From a virus: a stretch of 64,000 bases of DNA. A program made the position numbers and the translations under genes. The notes beneath the pieces were generated by a model, which made no database searches, was not told the DNA's origin, and worked only from the letters and a program-made list of their open reading frames with translations. How positions within the stretch are numbered: the first letter of the stretch is position 1; every line of letters starts with the position of its first letter. Of this stretch, positions 34,980-64,000 are shown one piece after another. The stretch is from IMG/VR virus record IMGVR_UViG_3300045988_110026. One strand, given 5' to 3'.

Positions 34980-35777
34980 TTAATTAGACATAAATATACA
35001 AGTTTTACTAAGATATCCTTCTGTCATCTCTATGAAATTCACACAATCTAATTTGCTTAACTTGTAAATCAATGCCGGATTGTGTACTATGGCTATAATT
35101 TGTATTTGTGGTTTATGGAATGACAATACATTATAAATTTGCATTATGTTATCAATATCAAGATTCCTGTCTGGCTCATCCATGAGAACCGTGTATTCAA
35201 AACTGCTTTTTGTTAATGCTATGCGGTTTCTTTTATAATACTTCAACAGGTTATCAATTCTTTTAATCCAAAACGCATTTGATTTTTTCTTGTATTCTAC
35301 AAGATCTTGTATTGGAAACGTATAATCCTTCTGACTGAACATTAAATTGAAAAGCGATTCCAATGATAACACCACTTTCTCTCCATAAGATTTTCGAATA
35401 TTATTCACATACAAATCTAAATTGCTGATGTTTTTCAATATACTATCTCGATTCATCTCCGCCGATGGCAATAAACGGAATACTTTCCCTGCATAATCGG
35501 ATGATATGTCAATCCCATCAAAAACCTTATCATCGTCATCAAATATAGGTGGAAAATCCAGTGCCTCGGTCGGCATTTCAGAGCACATGGATTTCTCGCA
35601 TAACGCATACATTGATATGATGTTAAACAAGGTTGATTTTCCGCTACCGTTTTTACCTATAATTACATTCACTCCTGGCTTGAAAATAAATTTCTTGCCA
35701 TTTTCAAATGCTTCTATATCCGAAACATATTCAAATGGAGTTTTTGTATTGTCTTTTATTTTTACCGATGTTATCAT
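34980..35777 (-). CDS. small ABC-type (AAA_21-like) ATPase
   Basis: Walker A GKNGSGKST, Walker B TVLMDEPDRNLD, H-loop-like IAIVHN; 265 aa with no other domain. Confidence 0.7.
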   Translation of the reverse strand: MITSVKIKDNTKTPFEYVSDIEAFENGKKFIFKPGVNVIIGKNGSGKSTLFNIISMYALCEKSMCSEMPTEALDFPPIFDDDDKVFDGIDISSDYAGKVFRLLPSAEMNRDSILKNISNLDLYVNNIRKSYGEKVVLSLESLFNLMFSQKDYTFPIQDLVEYKKKSNAFWIKRIDNLLKYYKRNRIALTKSSFEYTVLMDEPDRNLDIDNIMQIYNVLSFHKPQIQIIAIVHNPALIYKLSKLDCVNFIEMTEGYLSKTCIFMSN

Positions 35778-35788
35778 TGTAATTCTTT

Positions 35789-36661
35789 TTAAAAATCAAT
35801 TACCGTCCGAACCATGTCTCCGATGTGCTTGTTGCCGGTGCCCGTGAGACCACTGGAGAAGACCACGTACCACGCGACGGCCTGGCTGCTCTCAGTACTG
35901 GACCAATACCACGTCGAGGAGAGGGGAGATGCCGAAACATAAGTGAATGCTTTGTTTAGTTCGTCCATATAATGGGCCATTAAATTTAATTGACCAAGAG
36001 ATGGTATATACTCGCCATCTTCCAGCAGATTTCTCAATTTTGGATTTCTGGCTACAAGGCGTTCCGTATTGCCGCGTCCGTCAATGTCAAACAGCGCATC
36101 ACATTCACGTTCGTAATATGTCCCACTTCCGGATTCTTCACGGCTATCATCGTCAAGCAATTGTACGATATCATGTTCCGTCAGTGAGATTGCAAATGAC
36201 ATGTATCTGTGCTTCAACCCAATGTATCGTACACAATCTTTGGAGTTATCGCCGGTAAACGGCTCTACATGTCCATCTTTGTAGATTATATACAGTCCAT
36301 CAGTTGACTTTTTCTTATCCTCTTCGGATGGTACTCTGTTTTCACATGTACATTTCTCACTTTTGGATCTTACGATTATATTCAACTCATTTAATACATG
36401 ATCCCTGATGACGCTCTCGCACGCTCTTCTTACAAAATTATGATCTCTTTGTTTAAGCTCATCTGTTACCATACATCTGATCCAATGTTCTATCTGATTG
36501 TTTCCTCCGTATGTATTAAGCATACACCGTTTTACGAGTTTTTCCAATAATGGCTCTATGTTTTTGATTATATCTTCTTTGGTAAGGTGAAGTTCATTTA
36601 ATATATAGTTCCTTACTGCCTTGTATTCTTTACTTGTGCTCATAATATACCGATTTAACAT
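35789..36661 (-). CDS. protein with C-terminal DUF1566/Lcl-C-like (C-type-lectin-fold) domain
   Basis: C-terminus YWSSTESSQAVAWYVVFSSGLTGTGNKHIGDMVRTV matches the DUF1566 pattern (YWSST...AW.V.F..G.......VR.V). Confidence 0.5.
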   Translation of the reverse strand: MLNRYIMSTSKEYKAVRNYILNELHLTKEDIIKNIEPLLEKLVKRCMLNTYGGNNQIEHWIRCMVTDELKQRDHNFVRRACESVIRDHVLNELNIIVRSKSEKCTCENRVPSEEDKKKSTDGLYIIYKDGHVEPFTGDNSKDCVRYIGLKHRYMSFAISLTEHDIVQLLDDDSREESGSGTYYERECDALFDIDGRGNTERLVARNPKLRNLLEDGEYIPSLGQLNLMAHYMDELNKAFTYVSASPLSSTWYWSSTESSQAVAWYVVFSSGLTGTGNKHIGDMVRTVIDF

Positions 36662-37122
36662 TGTGAATCATATTTTCTTTCTCTCCCGCTGTCTTCCCCT
36701 ATCGGATTGTCCCATCCATATTTTACAGCCGTAGCTTTAAATAGAGGGAGTCCATAAAATGCATAATCATCCTCACTCCAGCCTTCAAGACCTTCTTCCA
36801 GAATGTAGTTCCACATCATCACACATTCAAACATCAAACTGGCTGATATTCCTCTCTGATTTAATGCCTTTTCAAAACCGAATCTTACGTCTTCTTCAAG
36901 CTGTTTCAGGACATTTTCTCTGGTAAATTCAACTACAGTACTGTTCCACTTTTCCTCGTTGTCATATTCTTCATTCGGCTCCATACCGAAATCCTTTATC
37001 ATGCTATATGGAACAAATTTAGCCAGTCTGTTAAAATCTCTACCGTCTAAACATTTTGATGTTAATTCTTTAAGTTGTTCTAATGTTTTCATAAGCAATT
37101 TTGTTTTATAGGTTAATCCCAT
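36655..37122 (-). CDS. hypothetical protein
   Basis: 155 aa; 10-bp overlap with the upstream NTase gene. Confidence 0.45.
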   Translation of the reverse strand: MGLTYKTKLLMKTLEQLKELTSKCLDGRDFNRLAKFVPYSMIKDFGMEPNEEYDNEEKWNSTVVEFTRENVLKQLEEDVRFGFEKALNQRGISASLMFECVMMWNYILEEGLEGWSEDDYAFYGLPLFKATAVKYGWDNPIGEDSGRERKYDSQC

Positions 37123-37790
37123 CCTCCAGTAGCATACAAAGATACATCTTCCTCCTCTACATTTACACCTTTAAGAGCCTGTAGAAGTTTTTTCTTTGCC
37201 TCCCGGCACATATTGTAACCATATCCTTTATACCGATATGAGCGTTCCCATGTGCTTACTGGAAAAGGAATATTTTCATCAATGACCAGTCTCTTCATAT
37301 GAAGATGTTCGAAGAATTTCTCATGGTAGAGTAGTTTGTACTCGTATGCTACTATACTTGCAGATGAGAATGGAAAATAATCATCTTCCTCTTCTTCGTA
37401 TTCCTCTTCTTCGTATTTAGGCTCCTTGTAGTAAGCCATTTTTGCCACAGTAAAGTCGAAGCTCCTGAGAATCTCTTCTGGCTTTCCGAACTCTGACTCT
37501 ATGAACTCTACCCATACCTTTTCTCCCTCTTTCTGGAATGCGCATACCTTCTCATTCCTGTACTTAAATTTCCATCCTTCTTTCTGATGTTTTTCATCAT
37601 TGAACAAATCAACAGCTTCCTGAAAATCGTCTTCGCTTTCAAAGAAAATATCAATATCTTTTACTTTTTCTCCGGAAAGGATATTCTTAAAACATCCACC
37701 AGCTATGAACCCCTTGTGACCTTCCATATATTTGTCAAGCCATCTTATTTGCCAGAAATTATCTGGAGTATCTATTATAAAATTGTTCAT
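37113..37790 (-). CDS. truncated class-II tRNA nucleotidyltransferase / poly(A)-polymerase-family head domain
   Basis: FIAGGCFKNILSGEKVKDIDIFF matches (GGxVRDxLLG....DxD); LRSFDFTVAKMAY matches (RRDFTINA); only 225 aa. Confidence 0.65.
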   Translation of the reverse strand: MNNFIIDTPDNFWQIRWLDKYMEGHKGFIAGGCFKNILSGEKVKDIDIFFESEDDFQEAVDLFNDEKHQKEGWKFKYRNEKVCAFQKEGEKVWVEFIESEFGKPEEILRSFDFTVAKMAYYKEPKYEEEEYEEEEDDYFPFSSASIVAYEYKLLYHEKFFEHLHMKRLVIDENIPFPVSTWERSYRYKGYGYNMCREAKKKLLQALKGVNVEEEDVSLYATGGWD

Positions 37791-37808
37791 ATTGTTTGTA
37801 TTTTACTG

Positions 37809-38063
37809 TCACCAAGCGAGATAAAAATTCCGCTTTACTATAACACAGTGGGTATAGTTATCCAGATCAACCCCATTTTCTTTGAATGTATCCAGAACCC
37901 TCTTTTCCACATGTTTCAATTTTACTATTATTCCCTTCCTAAACTCTTCTATTAACTTCCCGTTACATTCAATAGGCCCAATAAAACAGTATCTATTCGA
38001 AGGACTGTCTGATATACAATATGTCTGACATCCTAACATGTTGCTTAAAATTACTTCGTTCAT
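37809..38063 (-). CDS. hypothetical protein
   Basis: 84 aa. Confidence 0.4.
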   Translation of the reverse strand: MNEVILSNMLGCQTYCISDSPSNRYCFIGPIECNGKLIEEFRKGIIVKLKHVEKRVLDTFKENGVDLDNYTHCVIVKRNFYLAW

Positions 38064-39093: not shown

Positions 39094-39288
39094 TTATTGT
39101 TTATCATTTATAACATTTACTTCTTCGCTCCACAAATGTCTCTTATATATCGGAGTGATGCCGATCAGAATACCACTATCTTCGCCCCAATACTGAAGTG
39201 TTTTAGGCTCAATTTTATGATGCAATTCTTGTATTCCTCCTTTGTTTCTGTCATAAGGAGAAAAATCAGATAATTTTACCGTTTTCAT
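39094..39288 (-). CDS. hypothetical protein
   Basis: 64 aa. Confidence 0.35.
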   Translation of the reverse strand: MKTVKLSDFSPYDRNKGGIQELHHKIEPKTLQYWGEDSGILIGITPIYKRHLWSEEVNVINDKQ

Positions 39289-40019
39289 TTTTCTGGATTT
39301 TCAGCAGTTCCTAAAAGATATTCATTGCCCTCAAAAGGAATGCAATAAACATACACTGTTCCATTCAAGCATTCATATTTAGTCTCCCCATCCTGATCGT
39401 CTGTAATTGTTCTTATGAATAAACTGGCCTCCCAATTATCGTCCTCATAATATTTTGCTAACACTTTGTCAAACGGCTTAAACTCATATTTCGGCTTTTC
39501 TTCAATCCCGAAGAAGCGTTTTAGATATTCTTTTGCTTTAGGATTTTTGCTTTTCTTTAACGCTTTAATCATCCTCTGTTTTTCCGAATCTGTTGCAAGT
39601 CTATAGCATTCTATTTTGTTATTACATGCAGCAAGATTATCCGATATATTAAGACCTGTTCTCGCTGCAAGACTCGCATAAAAAGATGTTAAATATTTCC
39701 CATGTATATTTAAAATAAAAATAAAACTTCCATCTTCGTTGCTTAACACCTCTCCATCTTTAAATGTAATATATTCTGGAACTTCAAGAAGGAGGCGATT
39801 TTCGCCGCTAATTGCTTTTCCTGTAGCAGAAAACCAATCTGCCGATACAGAAATCGAATGAATTACAACCAATAACGGACAAATTGACGAATTGTCTTCA
39901 TATACGATTTCTGCTCTATTTCGTCCTTTCTCTGTCACAATACGACCTGCTATTTCCCCTATGTTTATTTTTTTCGCCGTTTCTAAATCAAACGGAATTG
40001 TTGCTGTTCTCTGTTCCAT
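39285..40019 (-). CDS. hypothetical protein, tandem paralogue A
   Basis: 244 aa; shares end-to-end similarity with the adjacent 247-aa ORF (IPFDLETAKKINIGEI...YECLNGTVYVYCIPFEGNEYLLGT). Confidence 0.55.
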   Translation of the reverse strand: MEQRTATIPFDLETAKKINIGEIAGRIVTEKGRNRAEIVYEDNSSICPLLVVIHSISVSADWFSATGKAISGENRLLLEVPEYITFKDGEVLSNEDGSFIFILNIHGKYLTSFYASLAARTGLNISDNLAACNNKIECYRLATDSEKQRMIKALKKSKNPKAKEYLKRFFGIEEKPKYEFKPFDKVLAKYYEDDNWEASLFIRTITDDQDGETKYECLNGTVYVYCIPFEGNEYLLGTAENPEK

Positions 40020-63886: not shown

Positions 63887-63903
63887 TGTCTTACTTTTTT
63901 TAG

Positions 63904-63975
63904 AGGCTTGTGGCGGAATCGAACCGCCCTACGAGATTTTGCAGATCCCTGACTAAACCACTCATCCAACAAGCC
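63904..63975 (-). tRNA. tRNA-Cys (anticodon GCA), 72 nt, CCA not encoded
   Basis: Hand-folded. Acceptor GGCTTGT/ACAAGCC; D-arm with GG; anticodon stem GGGAT/ATCTC with loop CTGCAAA; T-arm GGCGG-TTCGATT-CCGCC; discriminator T. Confidence 0.75.
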
Positions 63976-63978
63976 ATG

Positions 63979-64000
63979 TAGCCCAACCGGGAGTCGAACC
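63979..64000 (-). tRNA. 3' part of a second tRNA, truncated by the window edge
   Basis: Minus-sense ...GG-TTCGACT-CCCGG-TTGGGCT-A: T-loop, T-stem 3' strand, acceptor 3' strand and discriminator are visible. Confidence 0.55.

Follow-up and report, generated by a model that had tools for sequence, protein, structure and literature searches.

A short, probably stand-alone nucleotidyltransferase of the Gad2 family in a phage related to csAssE-Sib

Introduction

What would a phage do with a nucleotidyltransferase (NTase) that looks like the catalytic head of a CCA-adding enzyme but has only about half the length of one? The question is raised by an ORF of 225 aa in a viral sequence of 64,000 nucleotides (IMG/VR record IMGVR_UViG_3300045988_110026), the whole of which was analysed and is called here the window. 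An earlier note, made from the sequence alone, took the ORF for a truncated head of a class-II tRNA nucleotidyltransferase or poly(A) polymerase, which the overlapping gene of 155 aa might complete as a split enzyme and which would add CCA to the tRNAs of the phage. The three ORFs concerned are the following.

37113..37790, minus strand: the NTase gene, 225 aa, complete; a short NTase-only member of the Gad2 family (Pfam PF26128, PHROG 4400)
36655..37092, minus strand: the downstream gene, probably of 145 aa from Met11, with an all-helical domain (PHROG 5706); the longest ORF (155 aa) extends to 37122
37809..38063, minus strand: an ORF of 84 aa in the NTase frame, with TGA..TAA between the two; lineage-specific

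A complete gene with many phage homologs

A word-indexed search (E <= 1e-3) retrieved 1,131 homologs of the NTase and an exhaustive one 1,056 representative clusters, 124 of them at E <= 1e-30, so that the ORF is a real gene, far beyond what could be expected by chance. The complete members of this family (>1,000 clusters) are almost all 190-230 aa long. The 225 aa found here are thus the normal length of the family, and neither a truncation to half of the canonical size nor a fragment of a longer gene describes the protein. The short proteins are found in phages of Bacillota and Bacteroidota, and such half-size, NTase-only relatives occur in gut, dairy and marine phages. Among deposited phages the carriers include those of Streptococcus, Bacillus, Maribacter, Bacteroides and Listeria, together with others; most of the deposited matches correspond to S. 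thermophilus phages of 31-40 kb. The window region has a DNA identity of 94% with csAssE-Sib (OR575929), a human-gut phage of 151 kb. In this phage the NTase is annotated as 'polyA polymerase / CCA-adding enzyme' and is located in an extended leftward series of small genes, hypothetical for the most part, that follows the primase/helicase and replication genes on the downstream side. In the phage of the window, too, the surroundings are a long run of small early genes beyond the primase/helicase. NCBIfam had no match for the NTase or for the 155-aa and 84-aa ORFs, PADLOC gave nothing convincing for the NTase, and a literature search retrieved nothing on PF26128 or on phage PF01743 proteins. 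A gene of 219 aa beside DnaB on one contig (L008) was suspected to be the NTase and turned out to be a different gene.

The genomic neighbourhood is different in each of the other phages. In S. thermophilus phage 9872 the gene is flanked by RecT/nuclease and SSB, and in Bacteroides phage BF503P2 by the genes for dUTPase and dCMP hydroxymethylase. In Thomasclavelia phage TR-TP2 ThyX lies a few genes upstream of it, and in Lactobacillus phage Lbab1 it immediately follows the genes for a nicotinamide riboside transporter and an NMN adenylyltransferase. Its surroundings in the phages Listeria P35, Bacillus Basilisk and Maribacter Colly are small genes of unknown function. No neighbour gene is conserved across the NTase lineages. 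The family is tied neither to tRNA genes nor to a fixed neighbour; its members are located with early, replication, nucleotide-metabolism and accessory genes, as is usual for an early accessory gene. In Lbab1 the two NAD-salvage genes are suggestive of a counter-defence region, as a weak case of guilt by association.

Catalytic motifs and fold

The features recognised within the protein are listed below.

37641..37712, minus strand: motif A, residues 27-50, GFIAGGCFKNILSGEKVKDIDIFF, with the helix-turn GG and the metal-binding D45 and D47
37506..37508, minus strand: E95, the probable third catalytic carboxylate, in the strand WVEFIES; invariant in 57 sequences
37431..37469, minus strand: motif-B-like segment, residues 108-120, LRSFDFTVAKMAY, with D-F-T kept and the RRD arginines absent
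37368..37421, minus strand: acidic hairpin loop of variable length, residues ~124-141, with pLDDT ~53 and varying across homologs
37170..37343, minus strand: neck-like C-terminal region, residues 150-207, YH.kFFEHL..KRLViD..iPFPvST.ER.YRY.gYGY..CRE.K.KLL

The ORF contains both the motif-A-like string GGCFKNILSGEKVKDIDIFF and the motif-B-like SFDFTVAKM, which had been read as versions of GGxxRDxLLG...DxD and RRDFTINA. This reading was confirmed by hhalign, since the family profile, compared with five class-II head plus neck sequences, aligned at both motifs and at the third carboxylate (local E = 1.4e-4). Motif A aligns to the class-II GGxVRDxLLGxxxxDxD and to IAGG..NDLDVYF of Gad2, and the motif-B segment to the class-II RRDFTINA and to FDFTV of Gad2, while E95 was placed on the conserved Glu of the class-II 'hEhxTxR'. 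In the 57 sequences (40-99% identity) G31, G32, K35, N36, D45, D47 and F50 of motif A are invariant, as are F111, D112 and F113 of motif B, with T114 nearly so. The invariance of G31, G32, D45, D47 and E95, together with the profile alignment, indicates that the NTase is probably a catalytically active, Pol-beta-type enzyme of the class-II lineage.

The predicted fold corresponds to the head and neck regions of tRNA nucleotidyltransferases and poly(A) polymerases of class II, with motif A (GG and DxD) and the third carboxylate, and it has neither the body and tail domains nor the C-terminal half of Gad2. The nearest solved folds are those of CCA-adding, CC-adding and A-adding enzymes. Lineage, fold and catalytic set are therefore the part of the proposed class-II head that stands; its identity as a CCA enzyme, which would involve the RRD arginines and the body and tail domains, does not. 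Actually, the two arginines of the R-R-D of motif B are missing, the aligned segment x-F-D-F-T having a variable residue and the invariant Phe111 at their positions. In class-II enzymes these arginines contribute to the recognition of the ribose (2'-OH). In a global hhalign alignment, of a probability of only 13%, F176-P177-V-S-T180 is found at the E-D-x-x-R of motif D and R..R-[FY] is kept downstream, while in an alternative register E182-R183-x-x-R186 would take the position of the templating E-D-x-x-R. This low-probability alignment suggests that motif D has no base-templating E-D-x-x-R. Body and tail domains, involved in binding the tRNA elbow, were not found in the NTase, and the neighbouring ORFs supply none; class-II enzymes need both domains for tRNA binding.

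The class-II enzymes proper (PF01743; for example 3h37, 1miv, 4wby and 3aql) thus differ from the NTase in these domains as well as in motif B and apparently in motif D. The similarity to them is also low at the sequence level. Pfam PolyA_pol (PF01743) gave 14.5 bits against a gathering threshold of 23 (E = 0.047) and over residues 28-89 only, and neither a single-sequence nor a profile search of PDB sequences with the NTase matched a class-II enzyme. The S. pneumoniae protein NP_344798.1 (2la3), a stand-alone 'CCA-adding enzyme head domain' of 191 aa, is structurally farther from the NTase than the full-length CCA enzymes (13% identity) and was not detected by the profile search of PDB sequences either. 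Likewise, the eukaryotic TENT5/FAM46 non-canonical poly(A) polymerases (6jyj) share with it 9% identity and a likeness at the level of the fold only.

The Glu-rich stretch that had been described as a tail is not at the end of the protein. It is an internal, variable loop of low pLDDT (~125-140) followed by ~85 residues that are among the best conserved of the protein (FFEHL..KRLV.D..IPFP.STWER.YRY.GYG..CRE.K.KLL). The loop contains an exact tandem duplication of 15 bp (37386..37415) that gives YEEEE twice, and this accounts for the forms of 225 and 220 aa.

Independence from the neighbouring ORFs

The longest ORF of the downstream gene (155 aa, 36655..37122, minus strand) does overlap the NTase ORF by 10 nt, as previously noticed. 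However, all the homologs of this protein outside the csAssE lineage start at Met11 (MKTLEQL), and in csAssE-Sib the annotated gene is of 145 aa and begins ~20 nt past the NTase stop. The overlap is thus probably an artefact of taking the longest ORF.

In a split enzyme, the 225-aa head and the product of the 155-aa ORF would assemble as a CCA-type enzyme of two subunits. The two genes have no conserved co-occurrence or adjacency. Among deposited phages, homologs of the 155-aa protein are found in phages of Klebsiella, Serratia, Caulobacter, Erwinia and Aeromonas, none of which carries the NTase, and the NTase-bearing phages of Streptococcus, Bacillus, Maribacter, Bacteroides, Listeria and other hosts do not have the 155-aa protein, so that the lists of organisms are nearly disjoint. 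In all the loci fetched, the adjacency is confined to the csAssE lineage; metagenomic contigs with a homolog of the 155-aa protein contain no NTase within 5 kb of it, and in one close relative (L019) the 155-aa gene has been deleted and the NTase kept. Given the disjoint sets of phages, the adjacency in csAssE only and the loss in that relative, we reject the split enzyme as extremely improbable; the neighbour is an unrelated helical protein found independently in other phages. In Bacteroides phage BF503P2, the gene before the NTase was also tested as a relative of the 155-aa ORF and is unrelated.

On the other side of the NTase, the 84-aa ORF has no family matches and among deposited phages is restricted to the lineage of csAssE-Sib. 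Some close relatives carry a fusion of this ORF with the NTase, which gives a protein of 311 aa. Recoding of stop codons was considered as the source of these longer forms and discarded; at the place of TGA CAG TAA in the window, the fused relatives have the sense codons CAA CGG CAA.

Relationship to Gad2

Gad2 (Gabija anti-defence 2) was described as a protein of 400 aa in the Bacillus phage SPbetaL7, which becomes fully sensitive to Gabija when the gene is deleted (bioRxiv 10.1101/2023.05.01.538930). [quoted passage not shown] The mechanism of Gad2 is still listed as unknown in a 2026 review (PMC12904381).

Pfam already places the NTase family within the Gad2 family. A precomputed match to PF26128, which gene tables name 'Gad2' (match E <= 1e-5), is present in a protein of 225 aa that is 99% identical to the one in the window (P0001), in 118 of the 120 listed homologs, and in all 120 listed homologs of the Streptococcus branch. 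We compared the NTase directly with the verified Gad2 of B. laterosporus (sequence from Suppl. Table 10 of bioRxiv 10.1101/2023.05.01.538930). BLASTP aligned it to Gad2 residues 22-177 (E = 9e-11, ~21% identity), and hhalign with the family profile aligned residues 24-187 with a probability of 98% (E = 1.6e-13). Furthermore, Gad2 matches PHROG 4400 at E = 5e-29, and PHROGs 18122, 27100, 16176 and 1614 are matched by both proteins, although the window NTase belongs to PHROG 4400 and Gad2 to 18122. In the combined alignment they share IAGG..[KN]D.D.[FY]F, FDF[TS][IV], H.[DK][FY][FL].H, [KR][RQ]L and [FY]P..[ST]..R..[RK]Y...GY. Both Gad2 and the short family are confined to phages and prophages and labelled PF26128. 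As judged by these alignments, the protein is homologous to the NTase domain of Gad2, for which the neutralisation of Gabija (GajAB) was shown genetically.

The main difference between them is the architecture. Gad2, with 394-400 aa (~400 aa), consists of an N-terminal NTase and a C-terminal domain of ~200 aa, whereas the window protein (225 aa) ends after the NTase domain. The C-terminal half of Gad2 was not found by BLASTP against the neighbouring ORFs nor by a six-frame search of the window. When the 155-aa, 84-aa and 290-aa products and other neighbours were considered as a detached version of it, BLASTP and hhalign revealed no similarity. These ~200 residues, absent here, might confer the specificity for Gabija. 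There are also differences in the NTase domain itself: Glu95, invariant in the short family, is a Gln in both characterised Gad2 proteins, and the acidic variable loop is absent from Gad2. Both differences suggest that the short and long subfamilies may differ in chemistry.

tRNA genes of the window

The proposed role in tRNA maturation was derived from the statement that all the tRNA and tRNA-like genes of the window lack a 3' CCA. ARAGORN called one tRNA-Cys (63903..63975, minus strand) in which a CCA is indeed not encoded, and a second tRNA, represented by its 3' part, is cut by the window end, so that 'all' amounts to one complete tRNA and a fragment at the edge. In the window no Rfam family reached the gathering threshold, and the tRNA-Cys was missed as well. 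The rationale does not extend to the family. Two complete genomes that contain the NTase, those of Streptococcus phage 9872 (33 kb) and Listeria phage P35 (36 kb), have no tRNA genes, and for this reason the maturation of phage tRNAs cannot be the family-wide function of the NTase. A lineage-specific use on tRNA may exist in the phage of the window, which does bear tRNA genes.

Possible function

We can assign the family and the fold of the NTase with high confidence. The reading that we prefer goes further, i.e. that it is a complete, stand-alone and phage-specific enzyme of the Gad2 family, probably active, with an early role in counter-defence or host takeover, and as a whole we regard it as reasonably probable. 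Taken separately, the counter-defence role, suggested by analogy with Gad2, is evenly balanced, and Gabija specifically as the target is a tentative proposal that may well prove wrong. As for the reaction, the NTase would move a nucleotide from an NTP or dNTP onto an acceptor hydroxyl without a template. A nucleic-acid 3' end is the most plausible acceptor, and the nucleotide-binding pocket is presumably different from that of CCA-adding enzymes. In the infection this activity would serve early counter-defence or host takeover, the leading candidate targets being nuclease systems of the Gabija type that sense DNA ends. Gabija has been described as sensing DNA ends (PMC12904381), which makes the modification of such ends an attractive hypothesis. 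An RNA or tRNA substrate is also possible, since the nearest folds are RNA 3'-end enzymes and this phage has tRNA genes without CCA.

The tRNA version of that possibility would be a minimal 3'-end enzyme that adds or repairs CCA, or the terminal A only, on the CCA-less tRNAs of the phage or on host tRNAs that defence nucleases have damaged. Besides the closest solved folds and the tRNA-Cys without CCA, in an array that continues past the window end, it has in its favour the annotation of the csAssE-Sib and TR-TP2 homologs as poly(A) polymerase or CCA enzyme and the known occurrence of CCA-adding enzymes in the RNA-repair equipment of jumbo phages (PMC7824862). Nevertheless, we consider it improbable. 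The protein has no body or tail domains, nor do neighbouring ORFs provide them; motif B is without its two arginines and motif D apparently without E-D-x-x-R; PolyA_pol stays below gathering and the profile search of PDB retrieved no CCA enzyme. In addition, the family is common in phages of 31-37 kb, with 9872 and P35 as examples without tRNA genes, bacteria are expected to encode their own CCA-adding enzyme, and the sole characterised relative acts against Gabija and not on tRNA. A non-canonical RNA tailing of the poly(A) or TENT-like kind, by which untemplated tails on host or phage RNAs would alter their stability early in infection, is somewhat less improbable but still rather unlikely, with the ribose-recognising arginines of motif B missing and neighbourhoods made of DNA replication, recombination and nucleotide metabolism genes rather than RNA processing ones. 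This alternative overlaps with the preferred reading, as tailing itself could be the counter-defence chemistry. Finally, membership in the Pol-beta superfamily and the toxicity of some relatives when overexpressed might evoke a toxin of the MNT/AbiEii/MenT type or a CD-NTase that makes a nucleotide second messenger; the closest fold and profile match is not in any of these families, and we find this explanation hardly credible.

Within the preferred reading, that of a stand-alone Gad2-family enzyme, a more specific model can be formulated. The short Gad2-like proteins may represent the minimal catalytic core of Gad2, which would have taken untemplated 3'-end tailing from the class-II lineage, lost the discrimination of ribose and base, and come to modify DNA or RNA ends in such a way that end-sensing nuclease-helicase defences, for example Gabija, are not triggered or cannot act. 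By analogy with Gad2 this is conceivable, and we put it forward as a speculation that is unlikely to be right in all its parts.

Implications

Gabija is reported in >15% of sequenced prokaryotic genomes (PMC10781630). Gad2 is one of the few inhibitors of this system known, and its NTase domain can now be placed structurally in the lineage of class-II CCA-adding enzymes and poly(A) polymerases. The labels 'polyA polymerase' and 'CCA tRNA nucleotidyltransferase' used in at least two phage records (csAssE-Sib and TR-TP2) are unsupported, because the tRNA-binding domains and the motif B arginines are absent, the templating residues of motif D appear to be missing as well, and some carriers have no tRNA genes. 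What is new here is the recognition of the short, NTase-only form as the common form of the Gad2 family, which offers a small and tractable protein with which to find out what is modified by the enzyme. If the model of a minimal core were true, it would give the mechanism of Gad2 and show that this mechanism needs no more than the NTase core.

Fusion of the 84-aa ORF to the nucleotidyltransferase in some relatives

The nucleotidyltransferase (NTase), a short member of the family of the Gabija anti-defence protein Gad2, contains or is flanked by the following features of the same strand.

Features in and around the NTase gene
37791..38063, minus strand: 84-aa ORF and junction, upstream of the NTase (counterparts at L018:2501-3436, L019:2228-2535 and L001:10589-10862 in homologous loci)
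37386..37415, minus strand: exact 15-bp tandem duplication, TACGAAGAAGAGGAA x2, within the acidic loop of the NTase, encoding YEEEE-YEEEE
36655..37092, minus strand: 145/155-aa helical protein, PHROG 5706, with homologs in Klebsiella, Erwinia, Serratia and Caulobacter phages (H43-H81)
35789..36661, minus strand: ORF of 290 aa that follows the 155-aa gene, with a weak C-terminal PF07603 match
34980..35777, minus strand: 265-aa ATPase of the ABC/SMC type, two genes downstream from the NTase, with PADLOC P-loop matches

The 84-aa ORF and the NTase share one reading frame in all four relatives examined. The junction reads TGG TGA CAG TAA in the window, TAA CAG TAA in the close relative csAssE-Sib and TAA TAG TAA in L019. 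One sub-lineage, represented by more than 10 protein clusters (P0002 and P0009 among them), has CAA CGG CAA at this point, so that the two ORFs are read as a single fusion protein of 311 aa. P0012 (292 aa) is a second in-frame variant of the junction. Both the shared frame and the fusions indicate that the 84-aa protein may be a functional companion of the NTase. Outside the csAssE-Sib lineage no homologs of this protein were detectable.

Variation within and around the NTase

The acidic loop that contains the duplication is found in all members of the short family with variable length, whereas Gad2 is devoid of it. Larger rearrangements were found among metagenomic relatives in the form of deletion chimeras. 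In P0018 (340 aa) the N-terminus of the 244-aa ORF (39285..40019 in the window) is joined onto the NTase, while P0024 (393 aa; L019:2501-3682) combines the NTase with the C-terminus of the 290-aa ORF, the 155-aa gene being thereby lost. The presence of these chimeras suggests that the NTase region is a recombination-prone accessory region.

The head and neck halves of the NTase lie on separate ORFs, of 108 and 111 aa, in at least one S. thermophilus phage. The BFVD matches A0A286QMX1 and A0A286QMX6 (PHROG 24565) represent this two-ORF form in Streptococcus phage P0095, which could be either a natural split or a pseudogene.

Neighbouring genes

The 145/155-aa protein is unusually conserved, with ~60% identity between the gut phage of the window and ~160-kb Klebsiella, Erwinia and Escherichia phages and ~40 invariant positions (e.g. 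YGLPLFKATA.KYG..N.IG); its structural matches included none that was informative. The 290-aa ORF, annotated as a DUF3988 protein in csAssE-Sib, matched the Lcl C-terminal domain below the gathering score (E = 3.5e-4). With PADLOC, the N-terminal P-loop of the 265-aa ATPase matched the defence-system ATPases mad3 (E = 2.8e-16), AriA, LmuB, PtuA and GajA, but the protein is far shorter than any of them.

At the end of the window a tRNA-Cys was predicted by ARAGORN, although a search of the whole window with Rfam at the gathering score found no family, tRNA included.

63903..64000, minus strand: tRNA-Cys and adjoining partial tRNA

The latter is the 3' half of a second tRNA (63977..64000) separated from tRNA-Cys by a 1-nt spacer, and therefore a tightly packed tRNA array extends past the window end.

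In Lactobacillus phage Lbab1, gp180-gp182 (L020:9874-12588) are a nicotinamide riboside transporter, a nicotinamide-nucleotide adenylyltransferase and then the NTase homolog. NAD+ salvage pairs of this kind are used by phages against NAD-depleting defences. These neighbours hint that the NTase homolog of Lbab1 may belong to an anti-defence gene cluster.
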